62,770 nt of DNA, from positions 1-62,770 of the IMG/VR virus record IMGVR_UViG_3300028423_000363. One strand, 5' to 3'. This document shows, one piece after another, positions 1-56,413 of this stretch. The stretch's first letter is position 1. Each line of letters begins with the position of its first letter. The notes below the pieces were generated by a model, which saw only the letters and a program-made list of their open reading frames with translations, ran no database searches and was not told the origin of the DNA. Both the position numbers and the translations under genes were made by a program. The stretch comes from a virus. Lineage: Duplodnaviria > Caudoviricetes.

Positions 1-819
1 GTTCATAAATGTAAGCCTATACATACTGATATGTACTTATACATTGTTGATTTATGGAATAGACTAGGTCAAAAAAACACCTTTGGTTTACCGACAACTA
101 TAACTATGGAGGTTTTAGGTATAGGATCTTATAATACTTATAAAAAAACTTATCAAGATTTAATAGACTTCGGTTTTATAAAAGAAATAAAGAAATCAAG
201 AAATCAACATCAATCCAGAATAGTTGCCCTGTCAAAAAATGACAAACCACTTGACAAATCACTTGATAAAGCTAGTGCAAAAGCAGTTGATAAATCACTT
301 GACAAAGTAATTAACATAATAATAGAACAATTAAACAAGGAACAACTAACCATTGAACAATATGTTGAATTTATTAAGGATATAGATTTTAGTAAGAATG
401 AAAAGGAAATTAATATAGATAATCAAACTACTTCAAGTTTTCAGGATAAGAAAAAATCAAAAGATTTTTCTGACGAAGTGATAAGAAGTTATAATAGCTT
501 AGTTAAATACTTTCCTGAAGAGTTAAGACCTGAAAAAAATAAGTCTTGGTTAGAAACGATTGATAAGCTTAATAGAATAGATGGTCATAGTTTCGACCTC
601 ATAGAAGAAGTAGTTAGAAAGACTAGAAATGACAACTTTTGGAGACAAAACTTTTTATCATTACCTAAGCTTCGAAATAAAAATAAAGACGGTGTGCAGT
701 ATTTCTTAGTTTTTAAAACTAAATTTGCTCAGAAGAAAGATAATCACTGGAAAGATAATCCAAATTCAAAAAACATAACTATGGAAGAATTAATTGAACA
801 GGACACGCATGGACATTAA
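1..819 (+). CDS. Replication initiator / replisome organiser (lambda O-like, N-terminal wHTH); 5'-truncated by the window edge
   Basis: Frame is open from base 1 (VHKCKPIHTDMYLY...). N-terminus resembles Bacteroidota phage initiators (NRLGxK-FGLPT...SYNTY..T..DL.DFGFIK). Carries internal 12-bp repeats and lies directly upstream of the primase-helicase. Confidence 0.6.
   Translation, partial: VHKCKPIHTDMYLYIVDLWNRLGQKNTFGLPTTITMEVLGIGSYNTYKKTYQDLIDFGFIKEIKKSRNQHQSRIVALSKNDKPLDKSLDKASAKAVDKSLDKVINIIIEQLNKEQLTIEQYVEFIKDIDFSKNEKEINIDNQTTSSFQDKKKSKDFSDEVIRSYNSLVKYFPEELRPEKNKSWLETIDKLNRIDGHSFDLIEEVVRKTRNDNFWRQNFLSLPKLRNKNKDGVQYFLVFKTKFAQKKDNHWKDNPNSKNITMEELIEQDTHGH
241..312 (+). repeat. Six tandem imperfect 12-bp repeats (GAYAAAtCACTT), iteron-like candidate origin
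   Basis: GACAAACCACTT GACAAATCACTT GATAAAGCTAGT GCAAAAGCAGTT GATAAATCACTT GACAAAGTAATT, inside the initiator gene. Confidence 0.6.
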
Positions 820-2635
820 TGGTTTCGAAATTAAAGACTACAATATCTATGATATCCCTAGCAAATCTAAATATCATACCTGCCCTAAATGCAGTAAAGA
901 TAGAAAGAAAAGCAATGACAAGTGTGCTTATGTTAATTGGGATAGTGGCATACTAAGTTGTCAGCATTGTGGAGAATCAACTCAAATGCACACATTTAAA
1001 TCAACTAAACAAAGAGAAAAAAACTATGTAAAACCAAAGATTAACCTTAGTAATCAAGGTAAGTATTCAGATAACTTCATTAAATACTTTTTAGACAGAG
1101 GTATTTCACAAACCACAATGTCAACCTTCGGAATAAGACAAGACAAAGAGTATATGCCTCAAGAGTCTAAAGAGATGAATGTGATTTGTTTTGATTATTT
1201 ATTAGACGGAGAAGTTATTAACGTTAAGTATCGTGACGGAAAGAAGAACTTTAAGATGTATAAGGGTGCTGAGAAAATCCTTTACAACTTAGACAAAGCT
1301 ATAAATGAAGATTATATTGTTGTTGTGGAAGGCGAGTTTGATTGTATGAGTTTTCACGAAGCAGGGATTGAAAGTTGTGTGTCTGTACCTAATGGCTTTA
1401 ATCTTAAAGGTAATATTAACTTAGATTACTTAAATGATTATACTGAATACTTCGAAAACAAAGAAACTGTTTACATTGCTGTAGATAACGACGATGCAGG
1501 TAGAAAAGGTCAAAAAGAATTAGTAAGACGAATAGGTGCTGACAAATGTAAAATAGTTGATTTCGGAGATTGTAAAGATGCTAATGACTATTTGATTAAG
1601 CACGGAAAGAAAGCTCTTCGTGAATTGCTTAAAGAAGCTAAGCAAGTCCAAATGGAAGGAATATTCACAGCTAACGACGTCAGGTCTTCGATGTATGATA
1701 AATACAGAAATGGTCAAGAAAGAGGTACGACAACTTACGTGGATAGCTTAGACCCTGCATGGACTTGGAGAGGCGGAGAAGTTAACCTTTGGACTGGATA
1801 TCAAAACGAAGGCAAGTCTTTATTTTTAAATCAACTTTGTGCTGTTAGAGCTTATTGGGAAGATGCTAAGGTTGCTGTTTTTAGTCCTGAAAACTTTCCT
1901 GTTGACGACTTTAATAATGATATTATAGAAATGTTTATAGGTAAGTCTGTTGATATTTACTATAAGAATATTTATATGAATGAGAAAGAGTTTGAACAAG
2001 GCTTTAATTTTGTTAATGATAATTTCTTTTTAATATATCCTGAGAATAACTTTAGCTTAGACTCTATTTTTGAAAGAACTAGATTTCTTATTAAAACTAA
2101 AGGAATAAGAACATTAATCTTAGATCCTTACAATACTATTGAACATAAAATGAATAGAGGAGAGCGAGAAGATTTATATATTAGTAGGTTTATGGCTAGA
2201 CTTAAAAGATTTGCTGTAGAGTATAATATAAGCGTAAACCTTGTTGCTCACCAAAATACAGCCAGGATAGATGTTGACAATGATGGAAGATACAGGAAAC
2301 CTGATGTTAATAATATTAAAGGAGGTGGTACTTTCGCTGATAAAGCTGATAATGTTATTTCCATATGGAGACCTAATAGAAAATTAGATTACAAAGACAC
2401 TACTGTGTGGTTTATGTCTCAGAAAATTAAAAAGCAGAAGTTAGTTGGTATACCTCAAGAGATACAAGACATTACTTTTAGTGTAAAAGAAAACAGATAT
2501 TACTTTAATGGGTTTAGCCCATTTCAGAAAATAGATAAACACAGAAAAGGAGAAAGCGTTGAGCAGATGACTATAGAAAACAAAAAAGATTATGAACTTC
2601 CTAAGTTAGACCCTAACGATGATTGCCCTTTTTAA
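794..2635 (+). CDS. Primase-helicase (T7 gp4/Twinkle-like: Zn finger, TOPRIM, SF4 helicase)
   Basis: CPKC...CQHC zinc ribbon, VVEGEFD and VDNDDAG TOPRIM motifs, Walker A GYQNEGKS, LILDPYN, LVAHQ. True start is probably ATG 809. Confidence 0.92.
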   Translation: MNRTRMDINGFEIKDYNIYDIPSKSKYHTCPKCSKDRKKSNDKCAYVNWDSGILSCQHCGESTQMHTFKSTKQREKNYVKPKINLSNQGKYSDNFIKYFLDRGISQTTMSTFGIRQDKEYMPQESKEMNVICFDYLLDGEVINVKYRDGKKNFKMYKGAEKILYNLDKAINEDYIVVVEGEFDCMSFHEAGIESCVSVPNGFNLKGNINLDYLNDYTEYFENKETVYIAVDNDDAGRKGQKELVRRIGADKCKIVDFGDCKDANDYLIKHGKKALRELLKEAKQVQMEGIFTANDVRSSMYDKYRNGQERGTTTYVDSLDPAWTWRGGEVNLWTGYQNEGKSLFLNQLCAVRAYWEDAKVAVFSPENFPVDDFNNDIIEMFIGKSVDIYYKNIYMNEKEFEQGFNFVNDNFFLIYPENNFSLDSIFERTRFLIKTKGIRTLILDPYNTIEHKMNRGEREDLYISRFMARLKRFAVEYNISVNLVAHQNTARIDVDNDGRYRKPDVNNIKGGGTFADKADNVISIWRPNRKLDYKDTTVWFMSQKIKKQKLVGIPQEIQDITFSVKENRYYFNGFSPFQKIDKHRKGESVEQMTIENKKDYELPKLDPNDDCPF

Positions 2636-2710
2636 CATTTAAAGTGTTGTGTATATGAGTGTTATTAACTACTTTTGTCAAGTAAAATGATCAATAAACT
2701 TGACATTAAT

Positions 2711-2838
2711 AACGGATTACGGCTATGAAGCGTTGCCGAGTAAAACGCTTGAACTTTTAAATTATAAACAAAATGGATATACACCCGCAACACACAAATA
2801 TAGCACAGGGCAAAGGCAATGATTTTATAGCCGATGTT
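2711..2838. repeat. attC-like site (long loop containing the start of ORF 2773)
   Basis: AAC-GGATTA-CGGCTATGAAGCGTTGCC (2720-2737) ... GGCAATGATTTTATAGCCG (2815-2833)-AT-GTT. Confidence 0.7.
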
Positions 2839-3021
2839 ATAAACTGCCCTGATGAATTAGAGCCAGTTTTGGCACAAATAGAACATATAAACGATTTAGG
2901 TAAATCTAAATGGTACGAGGTAGTTTACTATGACGGGAACTGGCGTTCTTATAGTGGAAGCAATACTTTTGATGATGGTGAAAAGGTTTTAAAATGGAAA
3001 TACTGTAAGGGTTGTTTATAA
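2773..3021 (+). CDS. Cassette-encoded hypothetical protein spanning the crossover GTT in frame
   Basis: 82 aa. GTT 2836 is codon 22 (Val). The stop TAA lies within the closing TAAC core. Confidence 0.7.
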   Translation: MDIHPQHTNIAQGKGNDFIADVINCPDELEPVLAQIEHINDLGKSKWYEVVYYDGNWRSYSGSNTFDDGEKVLKWKYCKGCL

Positions 3022-3312
3022 CGTAAAAGTATAACAGTAGTAACAGAATATAAACTTTAAAATTAAAATAAAATGGCAAAACCAATTTTTATAGTAGAAT
3101 CACCAATTATGCAAACACAAGAAGAGTTTGTAAACACACAAAAAGTATTAGAAAATAAATTAAATGACTACCACGTTTTGATAGTACAAACCAATGTAGA
3201 TGATTTTAATTTTAAAGTTTTTTACGATAAAGACTTTACAGAAATTGAACTTAATGATTTAAGAAAATACATTAAAGAAAAATTAAAGTAGTTATTACTG
3301 TTATGCATTGTT
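3020..3312. repeat. attC-like site with a complete ORF in its loop
   Basis: AAC-GTAAAA-GTATAACAGTAGTAAC (3029-3044) ... GTTATTACTGTTATGC (3291-3306)-ATT-GTT. Arms are identical to those at 55275-55562. Confidence 0.75.
3073..3291 (+). CDS. Hypothetical protein inside the attC-like loop
   Basis: 72 aa with an A-rich leader. The stop TAG overlaps the first base of the right arm. Confidence 0.75.
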   Translation: MAKPIFIVESPIMQTQEEFVNTQKVLENKLNDYHVLIVQTNVDDFNFKVFYDKDFTEIELNDLRKYIKEKLK

Positions 3313-3359
3313 ACTTGCAGTGCGCCTATTAAGTGTAATTGTTTGGCGCATTGCTATGT

Positions 3360-3425
3360 AACATTTCGGCGATATGATTTGCGCCTTTATGGATTGAGTG
3401 ATTAGCGTAAATTATATTGCGTGTT
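3360..3425. repeat. attC-like site (66 bp)
   Basis: AAC-ATTTCG-GCGATATGATTTGCGC-20 nt loop-GCGTAAATTATATTGC-GT-GTT. Confidence 0.75.
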
Positions 3426-3460
3426 ATATGCCGATAGGGAACTGTAAAAATTAAGAAGAT

Positions 3461-3703
3461 ATGAAAACATTTAAAGTAAATACTGTGCAAGATATGATTG
3501 ACTGCACGAATGAAAACAACTTAGATAATTTTTTAGTAGATTTAAAAAAGATTATTGAAGCAGCTCATTATTTTAGAGAGTTAACTGATAATATGGCTGA
3601 GAAACAAAACATTTCTAAAAAATTAACGGAACTGAAAAGCAAAGGATTTGAATGGATTGACGATAGCAAACACGAAATAACTATCGAATTAAGCAGTAAG
3701 TAA
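3461..3703 (+). CDS. Cassette-encoded hypothetical protein
   Basis: 80 aa, between GTTATATGC (3423) and GCATATAAC (3720). Confidence 0.75.
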   Translation: MKTFKVNTVQDMIDCTNENNLDNFLVDLKKIIEAAHYFRELTDNMAEKQNISKKLTELKSKGFEWIDDSKHEITIELSSK

Positions 3704-3855
3704 TTTTTATTGCATATAACACGTGATAACATCATATATTGAACTAAAACATTATTAATCATGTAGTTACATAATATAAGTAGTTCGGAAGTGAACTTTT
3801 TATTTTTTAATTAAGTGATGAAGAGTTTGTTTTCGAACTACACTAAAATAAGATT

Positions 3856-4071
3856 ATGACGACATTTCAAGATTTACTAAAATTAAAAACAAAAAAAGGA
3901 GTTCCTTATAAAATAACTTCTATAGAGAAAATCAAAGACACAAAAAAATGGCATAAAAAAAAGAAAGATTATACTTATTCTTGGGAAATAATAACTAAAT
4001 TTGACGGAAATATAAGGTTTAAACTAACCTTAAACAACAACGACATAATAACAAATCAAGAGAAACTATGA
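3856..4071 (+). CDS. Hypothetical protein
   Basis: 71-aa ORF, translationally coupled to the next gene (ATGA overlap). Confidence 0.65.
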   Translation: MTTFQDLLKLKTKKGVPYKITSIEKIKDTKKWHKKKKDYTYSWEIITKFDGNIRFKLTLNNNDIITNQEKL

Positions 4072-4394
4072 GTGATTCAGTAACTAAGTTTTATGATTCA
4101 TTAACATCCGAAACTATTAGTGGCGATTTAAAATTAGCACATGACATGAAAAACAGTATAAAGCCTAAACATTACGAATTAATGGGAGTAGAAGTTAAGG
4201 ATATTTTAGAAGAGGTTTTAGATAAAGTCGAAAAAAGCAATTTCAATATGTCTTTAAATGAGGCAGGATGGTATCAACAAGCTATGCAATACTTTCTAAG
4301 ATTCTACGCTAAGAATGGTTTAGAAGACTTAGAAAAAGGTATAGAAGCTATGAATATTTTAGTTAAAAGTATAAAAACAAAAAACAATGAGTAA
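4068..4394 (+). CDS. DUF3310-like (SaV-like) phage protein
   Basis: IKPKHY...EVKD...YFLR...KNGLEDLEKG signature. Confidence 0.7.
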   Translation: MSDSVTKFYDSLTSETISGDLKLAHDMKNSIKPKHYELMGVEVKDILEEVLDKVEKSNFNMSLNEAGWYQQAMQYFLRFYAKNGLEDLEKGIEAMNILVKSIKTKNNE

Positions 4395-4644
4395 GAAAAA
4401 AGATTTACCAAACCACAAGATTGCAGTATTAACAAGTTTGTTAGTAGATGAATTAGATAGTCTTAAACCAACATCTGATAAAGGACAAAAAGTATTGAGT
4501 CTTGGTCGTGAATTGCAGGAAGAGTTAATGCCTGTATTAGATAATTTATACACTCTCGAAGGAGTAAGCAAAACAACTTATCTCTCAGACCTTGCAAATA
4601 AGGTGGACACAGTAATCAGAAAAAACTATAGAAAAATAAATTAA
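4387..4644 (+). CDS. Hypothetical protein
   Basis: 85 aa, overlaps both neighbouring genes in the operon. Confidence 0.7.
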   Translation: MSKKKDLPNHKIAVLTSLLVDELDSLKPTSDKGQKVLSLGRELQEELMPVLDNLYTLEGVSKTTYLSDLANKVDTVIRKNYRKIN

Positions 4645-5276
4645 TGAAAGTAGAATTATTAGACGTATTCGGAAATGATCTAATGATAGCTAATGCAGCT
4701 AGAGTTAGTTACGGAAAATCAAAAAATTTCTTTGACGAAAAAGACGAGAAGCTTTTAAGGTTTTTAGTTAAACACAATCATATATCTCCGTTTTTTCACC
4801 CTAAGCTACAGTTTAGAATAACTTGCCCTATATATGTCGAAAGACAATTAAAGAAAACAACTATAGGTGTTGACGAAAATAGTATAAGCGGTAGATATGT
4901 AGACTTTAGTGATACTTACACTAGAATAGAAAATTGGAGGAAGCAATCAACATCAAGTAAACAGGGAAGTTTCGGTAGTGTCGAAAATCAACATAAATGC
5001 TCTCTAATAGAAGATAATATTATAGAGGTATGCAAGAAGGCTTACGAAGATTTAATTAACGAGGGCGTCTCTAAAGAGCAAGCAAGAAGTGTTTTGCCAT
5101 TAAGTTTAAACACAACAATGATATGGACAGGAAGTCTTCAGGCTTTTTTAAGGCTTTGTCAATTAAGATTAAAAGAAGATGCTCAAATAGAAACAGGAGA
5201 TGTTGTTCGTGAAATGTTGAACGAAGTCAAGAAGTCTGGTAGTTTTGATAAAACATTATTGATATATGATTTGTAA
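4644..5276 (+). CDS. thyX: FAD-dependent thymidylate synthase ThyX
   Basis: ANAARVSY, HISPF, RQL...NSISGRY, KEQARSVLP, LRLKEDAQIE motifs. Confidence 0.92.
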   Translation: MKVELLDVFGNDLMIANAARVSYGKSKNFFDEKDEKLLRFLVKHNHISPFFHPKLQFRITCPIYVERQLKKTTIGVDENSISGRYVDFSDTYTRIENWRKQSTSSKQGSFGSVENQHKCSLIEDNIIEVCKKAYEDLINEGVSKEQARSVLPLSLNTTMIWTGSLQAFLRLCQLRLKEDAQIETGDVVREMLNEVKKSGSFDKTLLIYDL

Positions 5277-5382
5277 AAGAAAAATATTAAAATGTATCGC
5301 TACAGTAACAGTGTTTTTTAGACGTTCAAGTTTGGCATATGATTATAGAATTGCCATAGCTAAATATTCAGTTCAAACATTT

Positions 5383-5412
5383 AAAACCCCCTTTGATTAG
5401 GGGGTTTTTTTT
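5383..5412. terminator. Bidirectional intrinsic terminator between convergent replication and virion blocks
   Basis: AAAACCCCCT-TTGATT-AGGGGGTTTTTTTT. Confidence 0.85.
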
Positions 5413-8400
5413 ATTTAAAAATATCATTTAACTCGTCTTCACTTCTAAACAAATCAGAATTGATATCTTTACCTGTATTCTGTTCTACCGACTTGATTAT
5501 ATCTTTTATAGATTCAGCTCTTTTACTTGAGTTAGCAGCACTTCTAGCTTGTTGATAATTCAAGGCTTTCCTTATTAATCTTGGTGCAGGTATTCTTATT
5601 GTTGATAGTAAAAACTTAGTTAAGAATTCAGGCATCTTTTCCTTAGCCTTTCTTCTTGTTTCAAACTTTTTAGCAGATTTTACTCCAGGAATTTCACCTG
5701 TTTTAGAAGCGTTTTCTATGAGACCTATACTAGAGTTAGCAAACGAACTATAAGCTCCTAACAGTTTTGTACTTGATTTCAATATACTATAAGAACTAAG
5801 TATTAAATCTCCGTTTTCATCTCTAGGAATTATAGAGTAAGTTAACGAGTCTCTGAAATTGTAAGAGTTGTCATCTCTAAGACCTACATCTACACCGAAA
5901 CCTACGTTTAGTGATTCTATACCTGTTGAAGCTAAAACCTTTTGTAAGTTCCCAAGCCTTCTCATAACAAATACATTAGCAGCTAAAGACATCCCTTCGT
6001 TATAAAGCATTTTACCAAACTCTTTATCCTCTTCTTCGTCATACTCGCTTTCAAGACCAAACACACCCATTATAGTATCTAAAACAGTTCCGTATGCAAA
6101 TTGCATCCCAAAGTTATAAGCACTCATTCTAAATAAAGTAGCTCCTAATAATCTAGCACCTCTACCTCTAGACATATCTCCTCTTTTTCCTGCAAGTGCA
6201 TCAACACTTTTGACTATAGAAGAAAATTCAGCCATTTGAAACCTCGTCATATACTTATTAAACATTTTGAGTATATTCGCTCTTTCTTCAGGATTTAATT
6301 GAGAAAAAGGAGTGCTTTCAAAAGGGTTTAAAGACGAAAATCCTTGAGATAAAACTTCATCTGCATATCTAACCGATTCATTAAGAGGTTCTATTACAGA
6401 ATCATAATATATATTATCCTCTTTCATTCTGTTAACATCTAAAGCCTTACCTGTAAGTTCTTTAAATCTAGTTTTAAAACTACCCTCCCATAAAGGAATA
6501 GCTACAGCTCTATCTGGTGCTTCTAATAATATCGAGTTAACACTTTTTATTAACCTGCCGATACCTGGCTCTTTCTTAGAAGACGTTAACTCTCCTGCCT
6601 CAACTTCTTTATACAAACTTGTCGAAGCTACAAATATTCTTGATGATTGAGCAGAGTTACCTATCCTAGCTATAAACTCTAGGTCTTCATAACTATCTCT
6701 AGCCCCTTTACTGGTTCTGTTTTTTAGCCCATAAGCTAATTCTTTAGGGTTGTTAATTATAGCAAAAGACAAGTTACTCGTTAACTCCACTCCTGCCCTC
6801 ATAGGGTCTGCTAATTGATTGTAATAACCAATCTCATTTATCCGTTTAGCAAACTTTTCGGCAAAGCTATTACTTGTATAGTAAGATGAAGCAAACTCAT
6901 TCCTAAAAACCTTTGTAAATAACTCTTTAGATGCTTCGATAAATACTCTTCCGTTTTCATCTATATTTTCATTATTTAAAGCCCTATTCATAGTTGAATT
7001 AAACTCTTTTATAGCAGGCAACATATGATAACTTCTGTATATTTTGTCAACATTTCGGCTGAAATTTTCTACATAGTTGAAATCTAAAGGATTCACACCT
7101 GCTGTTCTTTCTATTAAAGAGCCTAACTCAGAAAAATAAGCACCTCCTTCTAAAAATGAATCAGCTTCTTTTATTATACTACTTAAGTCAACTTTCTCTT
7201 TAGTTCTCACATTTAAAGGTACATAATAGTCGAATATTTCAGGAGTTTTACCTTCCATAGTTGCAACATCTATAGACATTTGCTTCCCTTTATTATTGTT
7301 GAAATTCTCTATTATGTCAAAAACTTGCTTCTCATCTTTCTTTAGGCTTTTTATTGATGCCTCTACATCTATACTTCCATCGTTTTTCTTAGGCAACTCT
7401 CTGTAAATATCCTGAACATAAGTTAAGTTTTCTCTGTATCTGTCATCCCTATTGGACTTAGCGTAAACTTCAGATGCTTTAATATATTCTTCAGGTCTAA
7501 TTCTTTTTTTAGTGTCTATGTTTTTGTTTATTTCATAAAACTTCTGAAGCTGTATTAAGTATATCTTAGCATTAAACTTCATTTTGTTAACTCTAGACCT
7601 AGACGCTTGAAGATTAACCTTGAGTACCTTCTCTCTTTTTACATTGAATATATCTAAAGCAGCAACTCCTTCTCCTTTTTGTTTGTTAATAGAGTAAGAA
7701 CCAAAACCTTTAGCGACAGATTCCATTCCCATGTACTTATAAAGCTTACCACTTTTCTTTCCTTTCAAAATGTTATCTAAATCTCTTAATTGGTTTCTCT
7801 CGGCATACCTAAACATTCTGTTTTCAGCGTCATTTTTAATAGAATTTACAGCCGCATCATAAGAATCTCTAAGTAAATTTCTATATTTCACCCCGTCTAG
7901 CTCTTGCTGAATCCCTTTATTGTTTCTGTCAGCCTTTACACTATTCATAATACTCCTAACACGAGGAGTGATAGCACCTCCTTCAGAGATTATATCTATA
8001 TTATTATTTAATACTTCTAAATCTGTATTTGTAAACCCTTTAAGCTCATCTTTTGTTATAGACTTTATAAATGCAAAATCAGTTATTTTATCTTTAGCTA
8101 CATTCTCTATTGATGTTTTCTTTTTGGATTCAAACTCACTTAATAACCCTGCATCAACCTCTTTCTTATCTTCTTTAGTTGATACTTCTTTTTCTACACT
8201 AGGTTGATTATTAAATATTTTAGCAAACTTTCTTGTTGTAGGCTTAGATTTTATAGGATTAAATCTATTACCTTTAACATTGTTAACATACTCTTCAAAC
8301 TCTAATAAATCGTTCTCTGATAACAGTTCAGGGTTTATTTGTAAAGACCTCACAAGTTCTCCATTCTGAGGTATATATTTTCCACCTCTATTTTTTTTGT

Positions 8401-11083
8401 AAGAGTTGATAGCTGTCTTTGCGGATTTTTTAACTTCTTTTATTCTTTTAGATTTATCTTTAGGTTTAACCTCTTTGAAATCTTCAGGTTTGGCGTCTGG
8501 AGTTACTTTTTTTGAATTATCAATATCAGACTCTTCTATAATGTTAGCCTCATTAGGTATAACATCTTTTGACACTACTTTTTTATTGTCATTTTTAATT
8601 TCTAAAAAAACAGACTCTCCTTCACCTATATCCCTTCTAGCATAAGTAACATTTTCTTTTGTTTCTGATTCTTCTAAAACAACTTCATCTTCAACTATTT
8701 CTTGAGGTGCTTTATCTCTATCTTTAAGAGTTTTTAGTATTTCGTCTTTTTCTTTTATATCCTCTTCGGCTAATTTCTTTAAATCACTTAACTGCTTTTT
8801 CTTAACTTTAATATCTACCTCTGTATTTTCTCTTATTTCTTTAGCTTCTTTTCTATATGAAGATATATTCTTGTCTAAGACCTTTAAAGTTTCAAACTCG
8901 TCTTTAGTCGCTTTTTTTATATTTTGAGCATTAGAAAGTATAATATCTCTATTCTTAGTAGTTAAATCTATTATCTCGCTTTTATAAGCATCCATAGACT
9001 CTTCGCTTAAACCTCCTTTGGCTAATTCAGCTTCTACCTCTAACACACGCTCTGCATTCTTTTTTAAAGCTCTTTTTTCTTTGATAGTTGATATCGACCT
9101 TCCTGCCATACCTGTAACAGCTCCGAAGCCTGGAAGTAAAAAACCAACTAATCCTCCTGCCACTAAAGGGTCTGTAACATTGTCAAAAATATTTACATTT
9201 TCTTTTCTAAGTATTACAGCGTCATTAAAGTTTTCTAGCATTTGAACACCTCCTTCTTCTATAGACTCACTTGCGGCAGGCATCAGGTATTTTTTAGCTC
9301 CTTTTACCGTACTTCTCACAGCTTTATCTCTTACTGATTTAGGTGCTGATTTATAAACTCTAGAGAAACCTCTAAGTCTAGAAACAGTAGGTAGAAAACC
9401 TAAACCTGCTTCAGTTACACCTGTCATTAATGATGATGTTATTATCTGAGCTTTGTTGTACTCAACTCCTTGCTCTATCTCTTGCTGTATTTGTCTATAT
9501 TTGTTTCCTGTTGTAGAACCTCCTATTATAGTAGCACCAATTAAGGGGTTTGATGTAGCTGCTGCAACATAAGGTAGCGTTTCTCCTGTTGTTGTTAAAG
9601 TATAAGTAAGATAATCGTCAAAAGAATCAGCGTCTGTTATACTAAAATCTTTCTGAACTTCACCTCTTAAATCCTCAGACCATTCATTTAATTTATCTGA
9701 AAATTTCTGAGTAGCCCAAGCTCTAAATTTAACAACATTACCAACTAAAGGTACATCCTCCGTTATACTTCCTAATATTTCTTTATCATACATTACTTGC
9801 AGGTCTGCTAACCCACCTATTATATTCAGTCCTGCGGCTGTTGTTTTAGCTCCTGCTGTGGCAAACATATTATAAGACCTATTAAATAAGTCCATTTCCT
9901 CTGATAAAGTACCTATTTCTGCGTCTGTATTCTTTATTTTTTCCTGAATACTTTTAAGATCTTCTTGATACTCGTTAGAGGCTTGTATTTTAACGTCTCC
10001 TTCGTTTATAGAGAATAACACTCCTTCTTCTTTAGCATCGTTTAAAACGCCTGTAATTTGATTTGTTAGTTCTTCGTATTCTTTCTTTAAAGATAACCTT
10101 TGTTCTTCAGTAGAAGCCCACTCTTCATCAATAAAAGTCATAGACTCTATTTCTTTCTTTCTGTCAACTAAAGGCTTTACCTCTGTGAAATATGTATTGG
10201 CTTTTTCTTTAAACTCGTTTTGAAGTAAATTAGCAGACTCCACAGACTTAGATAACTCTTCATTTTTAGCTATTATACTGTTTTCTGAAAAATCAAATAA
10301 GTTTTCTCTATCCTCTACAGGTAACTCGTTAAGGAAGTTTCTTTGTTTTTTTTCAACTAACCCTTTCTTGAGTTTTTCTTTTTTTATCTCTATAGCTCTT
10401 TGACGAAGAATTTTATTATAGTCTTCAGGTTTGCTACCTTTAAGCTTTTCACGAAGTTCACTTTCAGCTTGGTCTAATTCCTCACTGATGTAATTGTAAG
10501 CATTTGTATCTCTTGGTAATAAATCTAAATCACCTGTTAAACCTCCTGTGCCTGCAACTGGGTCACTATTAAAGAAGTTCATAAAGCTATCAGCAACAGT
10601 GTTATAAGCTAAACCTATCTTATCAAAAGTATCAGGCTCTAACTCTTTAGCTATAGTTTCTTCTATAGTTTTTAAATCTTCATCTGTTACTTTAGTTGAC
10701 TCTTTCCAATTCCTGTAATTTCTTACCGTAGATGAATCCAAAGGTTGAGTAACGTCGTTTGTCGTTTTCAAATCTTCGGAATCCAAAGAAACAGTATTTA
10801 TTTTCGGAGGTGTACTCGAATCCTTTTCTGTTTGTTGAGTAGATAAGTCTGAATCGTCTTTTTTTTTTACATCGCTAACATCCCCAAAATATGCTTCTTT
10901 AAACTGATTAGGCGTAAGCGTTGTCATCTCGTTATTATTGAGATATGTAAAAAGCTCATTAAAGTTATCATCTTTAAGACCATACTCTCTGCTAAACTGG
11001 TCAAAAGACAAGTCAGTCATTTTATTTTGAGATAGGTAATCGTATAACTCTTTTCTTTTTATAGGATTATTTTGCTTAGCCAT
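5411..11083 (-). CDS. Very large internal virion (ejection) protein
   Basis: About 1890 aa (likely start MAKQNN at 11083). Helical and charged, with a Gly/Ala-rich hydrophobic middle. Last gene of a podovirus-type virion operon. Confidence 0.65.
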   Translation of the reverse strand: MAKQNNPIKRKELYDYLSQNKMTDLSFDQFSREYGLKDDNFNELFTYLNNNEMTTLTPNQFKEAYFGDVSDVKKKDDSDLSTQQTEKDSSTPPKINTVSLDSEDLKTTNDVTQPLDSSTVRNYRNWKESTKVTDEDLKTIEETIAKELEPDTFDKIGLAYNTVADSFMNFFNSDPVAGTGGLTGDLDLLPRDTNAYNYISEELDQAESELREKLKGSKPEDYNKILRQRAIEIKKEKLKKGLVEKKQRNFLNELPVEDRENLFDFSENSIIAKNEELSKSVESANLLQNEFKEKANTYFTEVKPLVDRKKEIESMTFIDEEWASTEEQRLSLKKEYEELTNQITGVLNDAKEEGVLFSINEGDVKIQASNEYQEDLKSIQEKIKNTDAEIGTLSEEMDLFNRSYNMFATAGAKTTAAGLNIIGGLADLQVMYDKEILGSITEDVPLVGNVVKFRAWATQKFSDKLNEWSEDLRGEVQKDFSITDADSFDDYLTYTLTTTGETLPYVAAATSNPLIGATIIGGSTTGNKYRQIQQEIEQGVEYNKAQIITSSLMTGVTEAGLGFLPTVSRLRGFSRVYKSAPKSVRDKAVRSTVKGAKKYLMPAASESIEEGGVQMLENFNDAVILRKENVNIFDNVTDPLVAGGLVGFLLPGFGAVTGMAGRSISTIKEKRALKKNAERVLEVEAELAKGGLSEESMDAYKSEIIDLTTKNRDIILSNAQNIKKATKDEFETLKVLDKNISSYRKEAKEIRENTEVDIKVKKKQLSDLKKLAEEDIKEKDEILKTLKDRDKAPQEIVEDEVVLEESETKENVTYARRDIGEGESVFLEIKNDNKKVVSKDVIPNEANIIEESDIDNSKKVTPDAKPEDFKEVKPKDKSKRIKEVKKSAKTAINSYKKNRGGKYIPQNGELVRSLQINPELLSENDLLEFEEYVNNVKGNRFNPIKSKPTTRKFAKIFNNQPSVEKEVSTKEDKKEVDAGLLSEFESKKKTSIENVAKDKITDFAFIKSITKDELKGFTNTDLEVLNNNIDIISEGGAITPRVRSIMNSVKADRNNKGIQQELDGVKYRNLLRDSYDAAVNSIKNDAENRMFRYAERNQLRDLDNILKGKKSGKLYKYMGMESVAKGFGSYSINKQKGEGVAALDIFNVKREKVLKVNLQASRSRVNKMKFNAKIYLIQLQKFYEINKNIDTKKRIRPEEYIKASEVYAKSNRDDRYRENLTYVQDIYRELPKKNDGSIDVEASIKSLKKDEKQVFDIIENFNNNKGKQMSIDVATMEGKTPEIFDYYVPLNVRTKEKVDLSSIIKEADSFLEGGAYFSELGSLIERTAGVNPLDFNYVENFSRNVDKIYRSYHMLPAIKEFNSTMNRALNNENIDENGRVFIEASKELFTKVFRNEFASSYYTSNSFAEKFAKRINEIGYYNQLADPMRAGVELTSNLSFAIINNPKELAYGLKNRTSKGARDSYEDLEFIARIGNSAQSSRIFVASTSLYKEVEAGELTSSKKEPGIGRLIKSVNSILLEAPDRAVAIPLWEGSFKTRFKELTGKALDVNRMKEDNIYYDSVIEPLNESVRYADEVLSQGFSSLNPFESTPFSQLNPEERANILKMFNKYMTRFQMAEFSSIVKSVDALAGKRGDMSRGRGARLLGATLFRMSAYNFGMQFAYGTVLDTIMGVFGLESEYDEEEDKEFGKMLYNEGMSLAANVFVMRRLGNLQKVLASTGIESLNVGFGVDVGLRDDNSYNFRDSLTYSIIPRDENGDLILSSYSILKSSTKLLGAYSSFANSSIGLIENASKTGEIPGVKSAKKFETRRKAKEKMPEFLTKFLLSTIRIPAPRLIRKALNYQQARSAANSSKRAESIKDIIKSVEQNTGKDINSDLFRSEDELNDIFK

Positions 11084-12680
11084 TAAATTTAATTTTAGTT
11101 GATTTATTTTCAGACTCTGCTCTTTCAAACACATCTTCAGTTATACCTGCTCTATTGAATAATACTTGTTTTTCAGTTTCAGGTAAGACAAAAGATATAT
11201 CTTTTCTTTGCTCTGGAAGTCTTATACTTTGTTTTACAGTTTCTTGCGTTATTGTTTGGTCTTGACTAGATAAATCAGTTTCTAACATAATATCTTCAAT
11301 AACATCATCAACTTTATCTTCGCTTGCACTTTTTATTCTGTTCTTCTGTTCTTCAGAAAGCGCATTGTTTATTTTAGTAACAATCCTTTGAGGTGTCTTA
11401 GATACTGTTGTTCCTTCTGTTTCAAGAGAAGAACCTCTAACAACTATAACCCCATTAGGTAGCTTAGATACGCCTTTTAATGTGAAATTACTGAAAGTTT
11501 TAGGAGAACCTTTGGAAAAACCTTGTATGCTATCGAATTGAGGGTTATTTCTTGTTATAGGTATTTCAACTGCCCCTGCAAATTGAGCGTCTGTAACTTG
11601 AGTTCCTATATCAGAGCCTTCAGCTTCGTTTAAAGATACGATAGCATCTCTATATTGAGCGATATTAGCATTCTGAATATTACCTATTAAAGTCTCTGTT
11701 TCCCTTTGCTCATCCGCATATTTACGACCTGCTAAAGCATCGCTTCTTCCTAACTTCTCTTTTGCACTTTTCTTAGTTCTAGCTTCGACTTCTCTTACCA
11801 TTTTATCTTGAAGCTCGTTAGACAGCCTTTGAACTTCATCTTCGCTAAAATTATACTTACCTCTCTCTCCTGTTAACTGAAACCATAAATCATTTTGAAG
11901 TTTAGGATTTAAAGCAATAGACCTCGCTTTCTCTCTTATTAACTCTTTTTGATTATTGTCTAAGCCTTCTTGAGTGAAAGTCATGTAATAGTTCTTCTTG
12001 TCATTACGGTCTACACCTTCAAAAACGTCTATTCTTGATATAAACTCTTCGGCTAAACCTTTTGCTTCTCCTTGTAAATCGTAAGCTCTCGGAGCGTTAT
12101 TAATAGTATCTACTACTGATTTAAGGTACATTTTCTTATTTACACCTTTTTCAGAGTACATAGGATTACCATTTTCGTCTAATTCTACTTCTTCAATCTT
12201 ACCGTCAACTATATTAGTAACAAGACCTTGTTCTCCTATCCAATCATCGCCTAAACCTCTAGATATTTTACCTTCGGAATAGTCTGTAATAAAAGAATCT
12301 ACCGTAGGAGTTAATGTTTTTCTTAGGTCTGTGTATTCAGAAAGTTTTTTGTTATAGTTTGAAGCCATAGCACGACCTTCTGATATAGATATTTCGCCTG
12401 ACTGAACCTTCTTTTGAATATCATACTGCATATCTCTCATCTGAGAAACAATACTGTAATCTATTTCGTCAAAGGTTTTCTGACCTGTTCCTGCAACTGT
12501 AGGGTCTGCAAGTATATCTTTAATGCCTATCTTAGCTTTTTCTACTTGTTTTTTTCTTTCAAAGTCTTTCTCTTGAATATCTGATAAGTCTTCGAAACCA
12601 CCTTTAACCATACCTGCGACGTCTATAACGCCTGTGTTTGGTTGTACTGTTGCGAAAGAACCTTTATTACCTACTGCCAT
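11076..12680 (-). CDS. Putative internal virion (ejection) protein
   Basis: 534 aa, between the small and the giant ejection-protein candidates. Confidence 0.55.
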   Translation of the reverse strand: MAVGNKGSFATVQPNTGVIDVAGMVKGGFEDLSDIQEKDFERKKQVEKAKIGIKDILADPTVAGTGQKTFDEIDYSIVSQMRDMQYDIQKKVQSGEISISEGRAMASNYNKKLSEYTDLRKTLTPTVDSFITDYSEGKISRGLGDDWIGEQGLVTNIVDGKIEEVELDENGNPMYSEKGVNKKMYLKSVVDTINNAPRAYDLQGEAKGLAEEFISRIDVFEGVDRNDKKNYYMTFTQEGLDNNQKELIREKARSIALNPKLQNDLWFQLTGERGKYNFSEDEVQRLSNELQDKMVREVEARTKKSAKEKLGRSDALAGRKYADEQRETETLIGNIQNANIAQYRDAIVSLNEAEGSDIGTQVTDAQFAGAVEIPITRNNPQFDSIQGFSKGSPKTFSNFTLKGVSKLPNGVIVVRGSSLETEGTTVSKTPQRIVTKINNALSEEQKNRIKSASEDKVDDVIEDIMLETDLSSQDQTITQETVKQSIRLPEQRKDISFVLPETEKQVLFNRAGITEDVFERAESENKSTKIKFNG

Positions 12681-40396: not shown

Positions 40397-40494
40397 ACTG
40401 TTTTTTTATTATTATTTACAAAGATACGAAGAATAAAAATTAGTTTAATTCATTGAAAAATGTATATTTGCTATATAATCTTAAATTTATAATA

Positions 40495-45306: not shown

Positions 45307-46230
45307 ATGAAAGAAGATTTAAAAATTATACACGATTTAGCTAAAAAATATAAAATAACAATATACAAGGAGTATATAAAAGAAAACCAAGAGTACGACA
45401 ATGTTTATATACCTGTTTTTAGATTGAAAAATGTGTGTGATGATAATTATCTTAAAAATGTTTTAAATATTAACCTAAATCAAAATGAAATCTTAGCTGC
45501 GAGGATCTATAAGGAAAAATTCAATGTCATTGACGCAAAGCCTTTCTTTTTTAGGTATTCTAAGAGAAATGGAACTTCTAACGACTTGTCTAAGATAATA
45601 AACAATAACAAGAAAGCTATATCAAAATTAGTTTTAATGACTTCTTTTTTGAATAAAGACAAAAGTGATGATGTTTTTGATAAATATTTCAATACTGTAT
45701 GTGATTTACTTTATGATTTTAATGGCTATGAAATAGATAGAGAGATGTTGGCTGACCTTACTATAAAAGGGAGGAATATGTCAGAAAAAGATATAGTGTT
45801 TCAACAGAAAAAGTTTAAATTTGTAAATGGTTTTGACAAAGCACCTAAAAAAGTAAAAATGAAAATAGTTAATCAAGGATTATACTGGGATGATTATGAC
45901 GAAATACATTCTAGAATAAAGAAAGCAATATATTATCTTTTAGAAACAGATGAGTTTATTCACTCTGGAAATATATCTAAAATAGCAAAAGTAAAAACAA
46001 AAGATGCTATGAAATATAGAAGCGTATTTAAAGATTTAATAGATGCTCACAATAAATCAAAATACGAAACTGATAACTACAAGAAATATATTAACAACGC
46101 TACTAAGAAAATAATAAATTCTACTATTGCTGAACTTGAAAGAGAAGGTAAAAAAACTACTAATGTAAACATTGCTAAGAAATCTAATCTTCATATTAAT
46201 ACCGTATCTAAAAATAGATGTAGATTGTAA
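45307..46230 (+). CDS. Hypothetical DNA-binding protein with C-terminal HTH
   Basis: TNVNIAKKSNLHINTVSK HTH-like end; own promoter at 45284. Confidence 0.55.
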   Translation: MKEDLKIIHDLAKKYKITIYKEYIKENQEYDNVYIPVFRLKNVCDDNYLKNVLNINLNQNEILAARIYKEKFNVIDAKPFFFRYSKRNGTSNDLSKIINNNKKAISKLVLMTSFLNKDKSDDVFDKYFNTVCDLLYDFNGYEIDREMLADLTIKGRNMSEKDIVFQQKKFKFVNGFDKAPKKVKMKIVNQGLYWDDYDEIHSRIKKAIYYLLETDEFIHSGNISKIAKVKTKDAMKYRSVFKDLIDAHNKSKYETDNYKKYINNATKKIINSTIAELEREGKKTTNVNIAKKSNLHINTVSKNRCRL

Positions 46231-46860
46231 AAAAAACACACGGACTTATACCCTCTATAATATAAATATAATAAGGGTCATAGTTGATGTGTGAAAATTC
46301 TCAAACAGTTCACGAAATGTCCCAAGCTACAAAATGTAAAATTTTGCAGGAGAAGATTTTTGTTTTGATTAGGTTTAGAAAAAGCTCTGTATATGAGTTA
46401 GGTTTTAATAAGTTTAGTATATGAGTTAGGTTATACCCCAATACACATCAACCCTCACCCTTCCGAAAATCATTTCAAATCGCATAGGGGGGATCTTACA
46501 TTTTGCACTTCATTTTGAAACTTTTTAACCCTTTAACCTATCTTTTTATTGATATAGTCCAAACTTATAACCAATATTACTTTGATAAGGTTTGTTTATT
46601 TGTTGTTTGTGGTTGGTTTGTTGTTGTTGTTATCCCCTCACTTTAATAACCTACTTTATTTAATTGGTTTAAATTGTTTTGATGTTTACAGTTCGTGAAT
46701 TGTGATCTATTATTTAAGGGGCTTTAAAGGTGGTTTAAACGGTCCTTATATATATGTATGTCTTTTGTAATTGTGAATAGTTGAATAATAGTGTTAATTG
46801 TTAAAATTATGTTAAACTAATTTAATTGTATTGTGTAACTAAATTGTTGACTTATATTTG
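46231..46860. other. Large non-coding region, probable genome terminus and start of early region
   Basis: No long ORFs; 16-bp direct repeat, C/G runs, a GT-rich tract, then a promoter at 46853 followed by A-rich small early genes. Confidence 0.5.
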
Positions 46861-47673: not shown

Positions 47674-47684
47674 ACCAACATTTT

Positions 47685-54135: not shown

Positions 54136-54200
54136 CTGGTGGCGTATAAGATTTGCGCCTTTTCAGCCGAGTAAGTTCAGCGTAAATTTTATGCGCTGTT
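54134..54200. repeat. attC-like site (67 bp)
   Basis: AAC-TGGTG-GCGTATAAGATTTGCGC-21 nt-GCGTAAATTTTATGCGC-T-GTT. Confidence 0.78.
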
Positions 54201-54249
54201 ATGCACTGGCACGGATTAATAAATAATAACTTAAATTCAACTTAATAAA

Positions 54250-54543
54250 ATGAAAAAGCCTACAACAGAGTGTTCAATTTCGGTACAAAAAAAATCAGAA
54301 ATAACTCGTGTATTTTTAGAAAGTCAAGGATGGAAATTGATTGAAGAAAAACCACTATTTGAATCTTTTGAGCATACTAAAAATCCTTACTTAAAATGCT
54401 CTATTGGATTGTACGGTGGTTTTTCTGTAGTAGAATTACACTGGTGCAACAAAACGCCTGAAAGAGAATTTTCGACAATCAATAACGAACTAACTATTAA
54501 TGATTATCACACAATCATTCGCCTGTTAAATGTACGGGTGTAG
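54250..54543 (+). CDS. Cassette-encoded hypothetical protein
   Basis: 97 aa, between GTTATGCACTGGCAC and GTGCTTGTGCATAAC. Confidence 0.75.
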   Translation: MKKPTTECSISVQKKSEITRVFLESQGWKLIEEKPLFESFEHTKNPYLKCSIGLYGGFSVVELHWCNKTPEREFSTINNELTINDYHTIIRLLNVRV

Positions 54544-54554
54544 TGCTTGTGCAT

Positions 54555-54620
54555 AACATTCCAGTGCTATGAAAAGTGCCTTTAGGGAATAAGTGATTAG
54601 CATTTTTTATAGCACGTGTT
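54555..54620. repeat. attC-like site (66 bp)
   Basis: AAC-ATTCCA-GTGCTATGAAAAGTGC-20 nt-GCATTTTTTATAGCAC-GT-GTT. Confidence 0.78.
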
Positions 54621-54667
54621 AGCTGACGAAGTGAACAGTAAAATATTAATGGATTAAAAAAAGAATT

Positions 54668-55258
54668 ATGAAAAATTGGACTGGAAATAAAAACAGTATT
54701 TATAAAACTTTAGGTTCGAGTAACCACACAGAAAAAAGCCGTGAGCAACATGACTATTATGCAACCGACCCAAAAGCAGCCGAATTACTTTTGGAATTAG
54801 AAAGCTTTGAAAATGTATTAGAGCCTTCTTGTGGTGAGGGACATTTAAGTAAAGTTTTTGTTGATGCAGGAATTAATGTTACAAGTAGCGACTTAATTGA
54901 TAGAAATTACGGAACTCAAAAAAGTTTTTTTGACTACGAAAAATGGAATGGCGATATAGTTACAAACCCACCTTACAAATATGGGCTTGAATTTGTAGAA
55001 CACGCTTTGAAAATAATACCTAATGGAAATAAAGTTGCGATGTTTTTAAAACTGCAATTTCTTGAAGGTAAGAAACGAAAAAAACTTTTTGTAGATAAAC
55101 CACCTAAAAAACTTTACGTATCTAGTAGTAGGCTGCTTTGTGCAAAAAACGCTGATTTTGAAGGTATGCGAAAAGGTGGCGGTAGTGCCGTTGCTTACGG
55201 CTGGTTTGTTTGGCAAAAAGGTTTTAAAGGACTTTCGCAAATAGAATGGTTTAATTAA
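54668..55258 (+). CDS. Cassette-borne small DNA amino-methyltransferase (probably N6-adenine)
   Basis: DYYATDP, SAM-binding LEPSCGEG, catalytic VTNPPY. Confidence 0.8.
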   Translation: MKNWTGNKNSIYKTLGSSNHTEKSREQHDYYATDPKAAELLLELESFENVLEPSCGEGHLSKVFVDAGINVTSSDLIDRNYGTQKSFFDYEKWNGDIVTNPPYKYGLEFVEHALKIIPNGNKVAMFLKLQFLEGKKRKKLFVDKPPKKLYVSSSRLLCAKNADFEGMRKGGGSAVAYGWFVWQKGFKGLSQIEWFN

Positions 55259-55274
55259 TATTTTATTGCAGGCT

Positions 55275-55562
55275 AACGTAAAAGTATAACAGTAGTAACG
55301 GAAATATTAATAACTAAATTTTTTAAATATGAAAGCAAAACTAATATATAATGGTGAAGAAACTGCAGAAACACAAGAAGTTGATTTACCACAAATACCA
55401 AGGGTAGGCGACGGTTTTTGTGTTTTAATAGACAATGTAGAAAAGCGAGTATTTGCTTCTTGTGTGGTGGAAAGCATAGACTGGTGGATTGAAAATGGTA
55501 AACTGCGAAATGTAGAAATTTATTTAAAAGACGAAGAATAGTTATTACTGTTATGCATTGTT
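55275..55562. repeat. attC-like site with a complete ORF in its loop
   Basis: Arms identical to 3020-3312. Confidence 0.75.
55329..55541 (+). CDS. Hypothetical protein inside the attC-like loop
   Basis: 70 aa (PQIPRVGD motif); stop TAG overlaps the right arm. Confidence 0.75.
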   Translation: MKAKLIYNGEETAETQEVDLPQIPRVGDGFCVLIDNVEKRVFASCVVESIDWWIENGKLRNVEIYLKDEE

Positions 55563-55670
55563 ATATATCTGGTGGTGGCTAGTAAGACCTTAGCGGATGA
55601 TGAATGCACTTGATGCGATTCTGGTTTGGCGAAAATATGGGTTTATTAACCTGTGCCACCACTTGTATAT

Positions 55671-55734
55671 AACTGGTGGCGTATAAAATAAGCCAGCGCA
55701 ACACTGGTTAATTCGGCTTGTTTTATGCGCTGTT
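55671..55734. repeat. attC-like site (64 bp)
   Basis: AAC-TGGTG-GCGTATAAAATAAGCC-20 nt-GGCTTGTTTTATGCGC-T-GTT. Confidence 0.78.
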
Positions 55735-55796
55735 GTAAAGCGTTTTTCAATTCAAATTTTTTAAATTCAAATATTAATCAATTAAATAAAATAAAA

Positions 55797-56369
55797 ATGA
55801 AAAAATTATTAAAATCATTAGACAAAAAAATATCAGTTAGACAAGCTGGTACAGGAACAATTTATGTTTCTTTTGACGGTAAAAAAATAAGAATTGCTAA
55901 TCATGAACCTAATAGATCAATGAAAAGACAAAGAGGTTCAGCAGATCTTGAAATCTACACTCACGATTTAGTAGGTAAAGAAATAAATTCTAAGTATGAT
56001 GTTGTAGAAAAAGTAGCAGATTTTTTAAATATTGAAATTAAAGGACCTACAAAGTCAGCTATTACACGTTTTAGAAATAAAGAATTAGAAAAATCAAAAA
56101 AACTTGCTAGAATAGAAATTGAAAATGAAAAGGAAATGAAAGAAATACAAGATCGAATTAAAAAGTTTTATTCTAAAATAAAAAAGCTGACTAAAGGCAA
56201 AGAAAAAGAACTTAAACAATTATATGCTGAAGCTGAAAAATATGGCGATTTAGGCTCTAATGGATCAAAAAGAAGAAAAAGACGTACATCATATTTTAAA
56301 AGAGAATTCAAAAATAGGTTTGGAATAGAAGCAACGCCTTCAGATGTTAAAAATGCAATTAATTCTTAA
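55797..56369 (+). CDS. Cassette-encoded basic hypothetical protein
   Basis: Likely start MKKLL at 55797; TGTIYV...KIRIANH motif; flanked by GTTGTAAAGC/GCTTTACAAC. Confidence 0.7.
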   Translation: MKKLLKSLDKKISVRQAGTGTIYVSFDGKKIRIANHEPNRSMKRQRGSADLEIYTHDLVGKEINSKYDVVEKVADFLNIEIKGPTKSAITRFRNKELEKSKKLARIEIENEKEMKEIQDRIKKFYSKIKKLTKGKEKELKQLYAEAEKYGDLGSNGSKRRKRRTSYFKREFKNRFGIEATPSDVKNAINS

Positions 56370-56413
56370 TGCTTTACAACACGTAATAACAACACATAAA
56401 CACTTAAACCCTT

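Follow-up and report, generated by a model that had tools for sequence, protein, structure and literature searches.

The subject of this study is array 1, a chain of stem-closed domains at positions 2661-3720 of the phage record IMGVR_UViG_3300028423_000363, which lies between a primase-helicase gene and a DUF3310 gene. The window, by which we mean the whole stretch of DNA analysed, is this 62,770-bp record; it is complete per CheckV and AT-rich, with 31.8% G+C. The primase-helicase is 62.5% identical to the helicase of Tenacibaculum phage JQ, followed by those of Cellulophaga and Flavobacterium phages. A DNA-level search of a phage collection with the window returned no close match, and the primase relatives in IMG/VR reach an identity of at most 61%.

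By sequence reading and an inverted-repeat scan, array 1 resolves into seven domains, D1 to D7, that are chained without gaps. These domains and their two anchoring genes, with the open reading frames (ORFs) they carry, are as follows:

794..2635, + strand: primase-helicase gene, a 613-aa ORF; conserved left anchor of array 1
2661..2713, + strand: D1, a unit without an ORF; hairpin GTTATTAA...TTAATAAC, with ends of 8 bp and an inner 8-bp stem
2714..2835, + strand: D2, a hairpin site of the "leader" type; long loop containing the ATG at 2773, with GTT at 2836
2836..3022, + strand: D3, a unit closed by GTTATAAAC...GTTTATAAC; the ends are a 15-nt inverted repeat at 87%
3023..3309, + strand: D4, a bracket with 19-nt arms (3026-3044 with 3291-3309, 84%) that encloses ORF 3073-3291
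3310..3362, + strand: D5, a unit without an ORF; hairpin whose ends pair over 5 bp, then 10 bp
3363..3422, + strand: D6, a canonical hairpin site; 16-bp stem (3369-3384 with 3405-3420) and 20-nt loop (3385-3404)
3423..3720, + strand: D7, a unit, GTTATATGC...GCATATAAC; the ends pair perfectly over 9 bp, or over 17 nt at 88% when the flanks are counted
4068..4394, + strand: DUF3310 gene (PF11753, 26.8 bits); conserved right-hand neighbourhood

Hairpin sites thereby alternate with units. A site consists of AAC, 4-6 nt, a stem of 16-20 bp, the loop, the returning stem, 0-3 nt and GTT; a unit opens with GTT and closes with AAC, and the words beside these two triplets are complementary and specific to the unit. 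The first-pass annotation of this DNA had placed four units at 2661-2713, 2836-3022, 3310-3362 and 3423-3720, with three hairpin sites between them. The units lie where it put them and their ends are inverted repeats, while the three sites are real and correspond to 2714-2835, 3023-3309 and 3363-3422. The left junction of the array is the terminal AAC of D1 (2711-2713), and the right junction is the TAAC at the end of D7 (3717-3720). With regard to cargo, D3 contains the body of ORF 2773-3021 (82 aa; phrog_23756, a family of unknown function), while the ORFs of D4 (72 aa) and D7 (3461-3703, 80 aa) have no family match. An extra hairpin, GTAGTTCG...CGAACTAC, is found at 3779-3842 in the backbone, shortly 5' of ORF 3856-4071 and outside the array grammar.

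The same grammar governs a second locus, array 2:

54138..56382, + strand: array 2 as a whole
54138-54197, 54559-54617 and 55674-55732, + strand: its hairpin sites
54198-54558, + strand: unit with ORF 54250-54543
54618-55276, + strand: unit with a DNA methyltransferase gene, 54668-55258 (phrog_799, E 1.2e-60)
55277-55560, + strand: bracket with ORF 55329-55541
55561-55673, + strand: unit without an ORF
55733-56382, + strand: eighth domain, a unit with ORF 55797-56369, absent from the first-pass list

Array 2 opens with a hairpin directly after the AAC of a resident gene and closes with a unit. The spacer lengths had been said to be the same in the two arrays, and for 3363-3422 and 54559-54617 they are indeed identical (AAC, 6 nt, 16 bp, 20-nt loop, 16 bp, 2 nt, GTT); the loops at 3385-3404 and 54580-54599, likewise singled out for their resemblance, agree at 16 of 20 positions by manual count. 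The flanks of D4 are duplicated as well, with 3019-3044 (26 nt) identical to 55274-55299 and 3289-3313 (25 nt) identical to 55539-55563, and the ORFs enclosed by these identical flanks have no detectable DNA similarity to each other. The rest of the early region, 48.3-54.1 kb, consists of tightly packed genes and holds no such elements. Directly 3' of the last AAC of each array (3721-3734 and 56383-56396) stands a similar 14-nt word, ACGT-R-ATAACA-W-CA, which may be a remnant of the original insertion target or primary site.

Site excess, strand-specific folding and covariation

Sites of the form AAC-stem(≥14)-GTT were scanned for, with 20 first-order shuffles as background. The + strand of the window yields 5 sites, against a shuffle mean of 0.15 and a maximum of 2; one of the five, at 3055, is composed of A and T only and is taken as chance. 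Across 39 loci, 54 sites were found versus 0-2 in shuffles. In all, 59 distinct hairpin sites were called by script in the collected loci, a few of them probably by chance. Scans for bare GTT...AAC pairs were uninformative, as chance matches dominate in AT-rich DNA.

The four canonical hairpins of the window fold at -22.8 to -27.3 kcal/mol on the + strand (z -3.5 to -4.5), as opposed to -8.3 to -15.8 kcal/mol on the - strand. Only one strand folds well because the stems carry G.T pairs. D6, whose stem has three of them, reaches -25.4 kcal/mol on + (z -4.28) versus -8.3 kcal/mol on - (z -1.10), and the leader-type hairpin D2 folds at -28.9 kcal/mol on + (z -2.84), with a z of +0.30 for its - strand. 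The small units D1 and D5 fold at -10.6 (z -3.55) and -22.9 kcal/mol (z -4.51), respectively.

Alignment of 27 sites shows covariation in the stems: 15 of the 17 pairs have changed on both sides, and such both-side changes fill 142 cells versus 39.4 in shuffles, a number reached by none of 500 shuffles. In slid control alignments, only 31-51% of cells are paired. One G.T pair is present in all sites without exception; another lies 5 nt from it and is shared by 20 of the 27. The modules also close on themselves. At least 13 contiguous pairs form between the two ends of a module in 23 of 33 non-redundant cases, compared with 14 of 1030 cross-pairings; 15 different hexamers are represented among the 23 closing modules, all of which have G.T at position 11. 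The loops are 20-21 nt long in the canonical sites of the window and elsewhere mostly 33-146 nt, with a few shorter.

Such helices could also act in the transcript, with stems that bracket cistrons for processing, stability or insulation of translation, and with the modularity as a by-product. Several features are compatible with this explanation: coding strand and well-folding strand coincide in the phage arrays, RNA routinely contains G.U pairs, and the loops of the 27 sites are 49% A, contain an ATG in 23 cases and leave the frame open through the 3' arm in 18. However, with an ORF of 200-1300 nt under translation inside it, a stem of 9-15 bp would seldom remain closed. Rfam at its gathering threshold matches nothing in the window, where tRNA and tmRNA searches are likewise empty; at E≤1, three of the collected loci (L026, L032 and L002) give nothing relevant and no attC family. 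What made us rate this explanation lower is the orientation of the host sites described below.

Breakpoints in relatives and spread among phages

Relatives of the phage were available as contigs from four public sequencing runs, aligned to window positions 1-6000. Being contigs, they show presence and not absence, and those parts of 2840-3716 that have little or no cover in the four runs were not used as evidence. Where contigs show about 94-95% identity in the primase, their match to the window ends at 2709 (X1 record 4, X2 record 10, X3 record 17, X5 record 27), and two of them continue past this point with unlike sequence. Backbone contigs resume at 3717, the TAAC that closes D7 (X1 record 6, X3 record 19); the one from X3 carries unlike sequence upstream of 3717 that resembles the 3' end of an array 2 unit. 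The DUF3310 gene lies within the relatives' contigs. Between these two points, a 344-nt contig corresponds exactly to 3019-3362, and a 1140-nt contig of depth 118 has 2710-2839 as its end. The hairpin at 2710-2839 is preceded by at least three different upstream sequences among the contigs, and the summed contig depth of the D2 bin is 2-10 times that of the neighbouring bin. Hence, the breakpoints between close relatives are 2709/2710, 2839, 3019, 3362 and 3717.

It had been anticipated that the primase-to-DUF3310 interval would vary among relatives at the core boundaries and would reveal an empty site. As far as the comparison was run, the variation does fall at the AAC/GTT cores; the empty site was not found in the assembled relatives. 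The closest primase relative in IMG/VR has no such array 3' of its primase, and no empty site can therefore be read from it or from the other assembled relatives.

The site family extends well beyond this phage. A 19-mer of D2 matches two IMG/VR phages (L025 and L026), which have the same grammar and several DNA methyltransferases as cargo. The grammar is also present in the cultured Cellulophaga phage phi17:1 and, again with methyltransferase cargo, around gp35-gp38 of Polaribacter phage P12002L. A 22-mer from the 3' arm of D2 occurs in 31 IMG/VR and 8 GTDB contigs, mostly of Bacteroidota; two of these carriers were examined and look like phage or prophage DNA. As exact patterns, the 22-nt flank and the 20-nt loop have no match in IMG/VR. 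The leader-type hairpin is about 125 nt long and highly conserved across loci; there, the ORF has its start codon within the loop and continues across the 3' arm and the GTT, and the loops share, by reading, a leader motif AACTTT...AAAT. A conserved N-terminal targeting peptide was considered as the reason for this conservation and rejected, as the loop peptides vary widely and only the arm-encoded residues are constant. In all five phage arrays the cargo is sense on the folding strand.

Two observations on this family stand by themselves. A 4552-nt portion (L050) of a jumbo-sized viral contig of 265,845 bp is very densely packed: the script called 13 hairpin sites in these 4.5 kb, of which two overlap. 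In addition, the leader-type 22-mer is found on three short contigs (L063, L064 and L065) of metagenome-assembled genomes labelled Mycobacterium, Dehalococcoidales and Rickettsiales, which are probably phage contigs binned with the wrong genome.

The junctions may be genuine cassette junctions and yet have been moved in phages by homologous or single-strand-annealing recombination alone, with no site-specific enzyme at work during infection. The window encodes an ERF protein, a 5'-3' exonuclease and an endonuclease I-like protein, and a Rad52-like protein is encoded in another of the loci (L070). Moreover, the breakpoints coincide with the places where conserved blocks end (the inner edges of the 3023-3309 arms among them), the leader hairpin with its conserved 125 nt or so offers enough homology for annealing, and conserved stem-loops known as PeSLs (Promoter(early) Stem-Loops) act in this manner in T4-like phages, according to the portion of that study drawn on here (PMC2839356). 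Nevertheless, the cassette-specific ends have no homology between cassettes and are kept perfectly complementary all the same. This route also needs two crossovers in shared sequence, whereas four loci with one common cargo have four unrelated downstream neighbours, and it leaves unexplained both the linkage to a host recombinase and the single fixed orientation that are reported next. We therefore regard it as unlikely to be the whole account.

Host arrays and the proposed gene-capture system

In Aequorivita marina, about 60 nt separate the end of a leader-type cassette from the 3' end of a tyrosine recombinase gene. The enzyme is Xer/IntI-like and falls under all curated cut-offs (XerA 187 versus 220, IntI 183.5 versus 265, XerD 170 versus 330); in its match to TIGR02249, profile positions 182-239 are unmatched. 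Homologues with at least 46% identity occur at 17 places among 301 Flavobacteriaceae genomes. Beyond the 3' end of the recombinase gene, 8 of 11 flanks contain sites, 26 in total, and all 26 are oriented alike, with the folding strand convergent with the recombinase gene. For eight genes, the 3' sides hold 24 sites in 57,565 nt, whereas the 64,007 nt on the 5' sides yield 5, all weak and non-canonical. In one host array (L112), the GTT word of each site is complementary to the AAC word of the next, which is the signature of integron cassettes. TIGR02249, the IntI profile, is above its cut-off in none of the 5 site-bearing and none of the 301 family genomes, a result read without a positive control since the control genomes are integron-free.

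In each of the eight host flanks with sites, most of the coding capacity is antisense to the folding strand; in L110, L112, L113 and L115, sense coding amounts to 0 aa and antisense coding to about 725-2170 aa. The cargo includes GmrSD, a KAP NTPase and an RNase T-like exonuclease, so these arrays are not prophages. The folding strand thus stays constant whichever way the genes run, antisense in hosts and sense in phages, which argues for a role in DNA that is not bound to mRNA. Because these chromosomal sites, with their same G.T pattern, lie antisense to genes, punctuation of mRNA becomes a distinctly improbable explanation. As a separate observation, an 11.5-kb viral contig (L062) encodes at 2760-3464 (+) a tyrosine recombinase that is 34% identical to the host one; it lies about 100 nt past a leader-type cassette on the same strand, unlike the convergent host layout.

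With the same sites standing beside a recombinase in likely hosts, phage and host seem to share one gene-capture system. We therefore consider it probable that array 1, like array 2, is a recombinase-less cassette array of an integron-like, non-IntI gene-capture system of Bacteroidota. The first-pass annotation had argued from the two loci for an active, reusable insertion system rather than a single duplication. Reusability is supported by the core-bounded variation, by the occurrence in many phages and by the linkage to a host recombinase; activity in this very phage is something we infer, because it encodes no recombinase of its own.

A different source of mobility would be a Y1 HUH transposase, with the modules as non-autonomous single-strand transposons of the IS200/IS605 type (PATE-like, after palindrome-associated transposable elements). 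Strand-specific hairpins, the lack of target duplications and an apparent insertion 3' of the short word AAC would all suit such elements, and two carrier phages, G001 and G002, do give a Y1_Tnp match. The window itself has no Y1 transposase, however, and the G001 copy (within L030, G001:7916-11152) is seemingly truncated, covering profile positions 3-81 of 121; some 50 kb separate it from the array, and its surroundings are free of such hairpins. The host arrays, for their part, adjoin a tyrosine recombinase and not a Y1 enzyme. An element of this type would have a Y1 HUH transposase at its disposal and subterminal hairpins at both ends; the G001/G002 copy is partial and remote from the array, and the assignment to this transposon type was rejected as highly improbable.

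Several points weigh against the reading of array 1 as a cassette array of an integron-like system. No tyrosine recombinase (PF00589) is found in the window, although the same profile matched 14 of 14 control genomes, and neither is a serine recombinase or a Y1 transposase (PF01797); a serine recombinase is present only in the carrier phages G001 and G002. The recombinase was read in genomes of Flavobacteriaceae, the likely hosts. None of the products that recombination would leave (a circle, an empty site, a deletion joint) came to light for this phage. One contig does join 3053 to 3286, so that the interior of D4 is skipped or replaced in it; as a deletion joint it counts for little, since the intervening sequence was not read and the shorter side is only 27 letters. 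The breakpoints at the inner edges of the D4 arms belong on the same side of the balance, because ordinary homologous recombination between conserved blocks, by a phage with ERF and a 5'-3' exonuclease, would give them too. The leader-type loci were gathered by an exact 22-mer and form a biased set, and the 97.2% of paired cells in the 27-site alignment is circular because the site-finding script demands pairing, a fault that does not touch the covariation, the fixed G.T pairs or the shuffle counts. As for the likeness to attC sites, the 17 aligned stem pairs have no bulges and show fixed G.T pairs instead, the spacers are lopsided (3-7 nt on the 5' side versus 0-3 nt on the 3' side), and the P12002L site that IntI1 recombined in the published assay discussed below may or may not be one of the hairpins read here.

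If array 1 is such a cassette array, a cassette on the folding strand would be composed of a hairpin site followed by a cargo region and be bounded by AAC on both sides. We favour this phase because it keeps every ORF of both arrays whole, and it also fits the start and end of array 2. The units of the first-pass annotation thus keep their boundaries, but the mobile module had to be corrected to a hairpin site plus the following unit, cut at AAC, since each whole ORF fits this module and not the units alone. The cargo region starts with GTT and a cassette-specific word and ends with the complementary word and AAC, the pattern expected if both ends derive from one folded site in a free circular cassette; in that circle the unit ends would pair and lengthen the hairpin by about 15 bp. 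Insertion, loss and exchange of cassettes would then take place at the AAC junction of the folded single strand. In the integron reaction, cleavage of the folded bottom strand falls within the AAC just before the hairpin, which matches the proposed phase.

The likely enzyme for this reaction is the host Xer/IntI-like tyrosine recombinase encoded beside the host arrays. Phages may gain and lose cassettes in recombinase-bearing hosts, or through annealing-type recombination between shared hairpins. Their cargo would run "backwards" relative to that of integrons: it is sense, and the A-rich loop often appears to give the start codon and the first codons, so that a cassette would bring its own translation start.

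Array 1 matters less on its own than through what the site family implies. Taken together, the phage and host data invite a wider reading, to which we would give an even chance. It holds that Bacteroidota and their phages share a second, IntI-independent integron-type system, in which hosts keep defence and accessory cassettes downstream of a dedicated Xer/IntI-like recombinase, and virulent phages borrow the folded sites without the enzyme for anti-restriction methyltransferases and small early genes. The cargo would be flipped in phages, with the loop as a portable translation start, and strand choice would be signalled by the fixed G.T pairs, which are placed one helical turn away from the AAC/GTT ends, as it is by extrahelical bases in classical attC sites.

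Integrons are the textbook case of gene capture one cassette at a time, and the prevailing view is that they require IntI and are seldom present in Bacteroidota. The portion of the IntegronFinder 2.0 report used here gives one complete integron in Bacteroidetes, and Ghaly et al. 2021 place Bacteroidota among the integron-bearing phyla. Should the proposed system be real, it would account for the ease with which marine flavobacterial phages exchange accessory genes, and a single system would serve both the defence genes of hosts and the counter-defence genes of lytic phages. It would also be a second, independently evolved case of recombination at folded single strands, and a simple rule, AAC-hairpin-GTT with fixed G.T pairs, would suffice to find cassette cargo in metagenomes.

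The window has further features of note away from the arrays. A GroEL/Cpn60-type chaperonin gene (PF00118, E 1.9e-57) is found at 40453-42120 (+), and a leftward block includes two giant ORFs, 5411-11134 (-) of 1907 aa and 13661-17914 (-) of 1417 aa. The GIY-YIG-like T5orf172/MUG113-domain protein encoded at 61990-62745 (+), for which no link to the arrays was seen, is possibly a candidate nuclease of a mobile element of its own. The early region has long ORF-free stretches at 46230-47070 and 47680-48340 with G+C-rich segments, for example around 48130-48200; these might be candidate non-coding RNAs or an origin, and Rfam at its gathering threshold gives no match to them.

Comparison with known systems

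Small gene modules bounded by inverted recombination sites for a Xer-type tyrosine recombinase of the host are known from the dif modules of Acinetobacter plasmids and from Xer-exploiting elements such as the CTX phage, where a folded single strand is used. The dif sites are conserved 28-bp XerC/XerD sites, whereas the sites of this family have a long hairpin between words that differ from cassette to cassette; a dif-like 11-6-11 site was not recognised in this DNA.

Among models that rely on homologous recombination, the PeSLs come closest; these are conserved stem-loops that T4-like phages carry between the small accessory genes of their hypervariable regions (Arbiol et al. 2010, PMC2839356; Comeau et al. 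2014, PMC4122927). In the sections of these papers on which we rely, PeSLs mark the boundaries of insertion, deletion and replacement between close relatives, as do the sites here at the five breakpoints listed above, and they have G.T pairs in their stems and may carry expression signals. Where the two differ, again by those sections, is that PeSLs combine sigma-70 promoter and terminator motifs and serve as direct repeats for homologous recombination, and that they are described without AAC/GTT cores, cassette-specific inverted ends or recombinase-linked host arrays.

Relative to integrons, there are further differences. A complete integron has an IntI integrase, with the IntI-specific insertion, next to its array; searches of the phage and of host-family genomes found no IntI, and the neighbouring recombinase is under the cut-off of every family that it matches. 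The complementary cassette ends span about 15 bp, whereas the R box of integrons has 7 bp. In hosts, the array is on the downstream side of the recombinase gene and has the same direction, whereas the cassettes of integrons diverge from intI. Phage cargo has the sense orientation on the strand that folds, and its start is often in the loop; host cargo, on the other hand, is mostly antisense, as in integrons, where the ORF precedes its attC.

Part of this comparison is already in print. In the sections of Qi et al. 2023 (PMC9892861) consulted, clusters of attC sites lacking integron-integrases (CALINs) are reported in 17 phages, the P12002L cluster among them, and one predicted P12002L attC (HattCI+INFERNAL) was recombined by IntI1 at G|TT. 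This phage CALIN paper is the nearest precedent in the literature searched, where the recombinase link, the full grammar and the mirrored orientation of the cargo were not found. The attC site itself, as set out in the part of Cury et al. 2016 used here (PMC4889954), has R and L boxes, unpaired spacers, extrahelical bases, a variable loop and AAC/GTT triplets. The sites described here share with it an imperfect palindrome with AAC at the 5' and GTT at the 3' side, in four canonical sites of the window and about 50 elsewhere, and the loop lengths suit its variable terminal structure of about 20-100 nt. In integron cassettes, the sequence after G|TT pairs with the R'' box at the far end, so that the sites within arrays are chimeric; here, too, each cassette opens with the complement of the word that precedes its AAC, and the chain rule holds in the host array L112. 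Finally, the phage arrays resemble CALINs in their tandem one-gene cassettes, their variable loops, their existence without a phage recombinase and their methyltransferase cargo.

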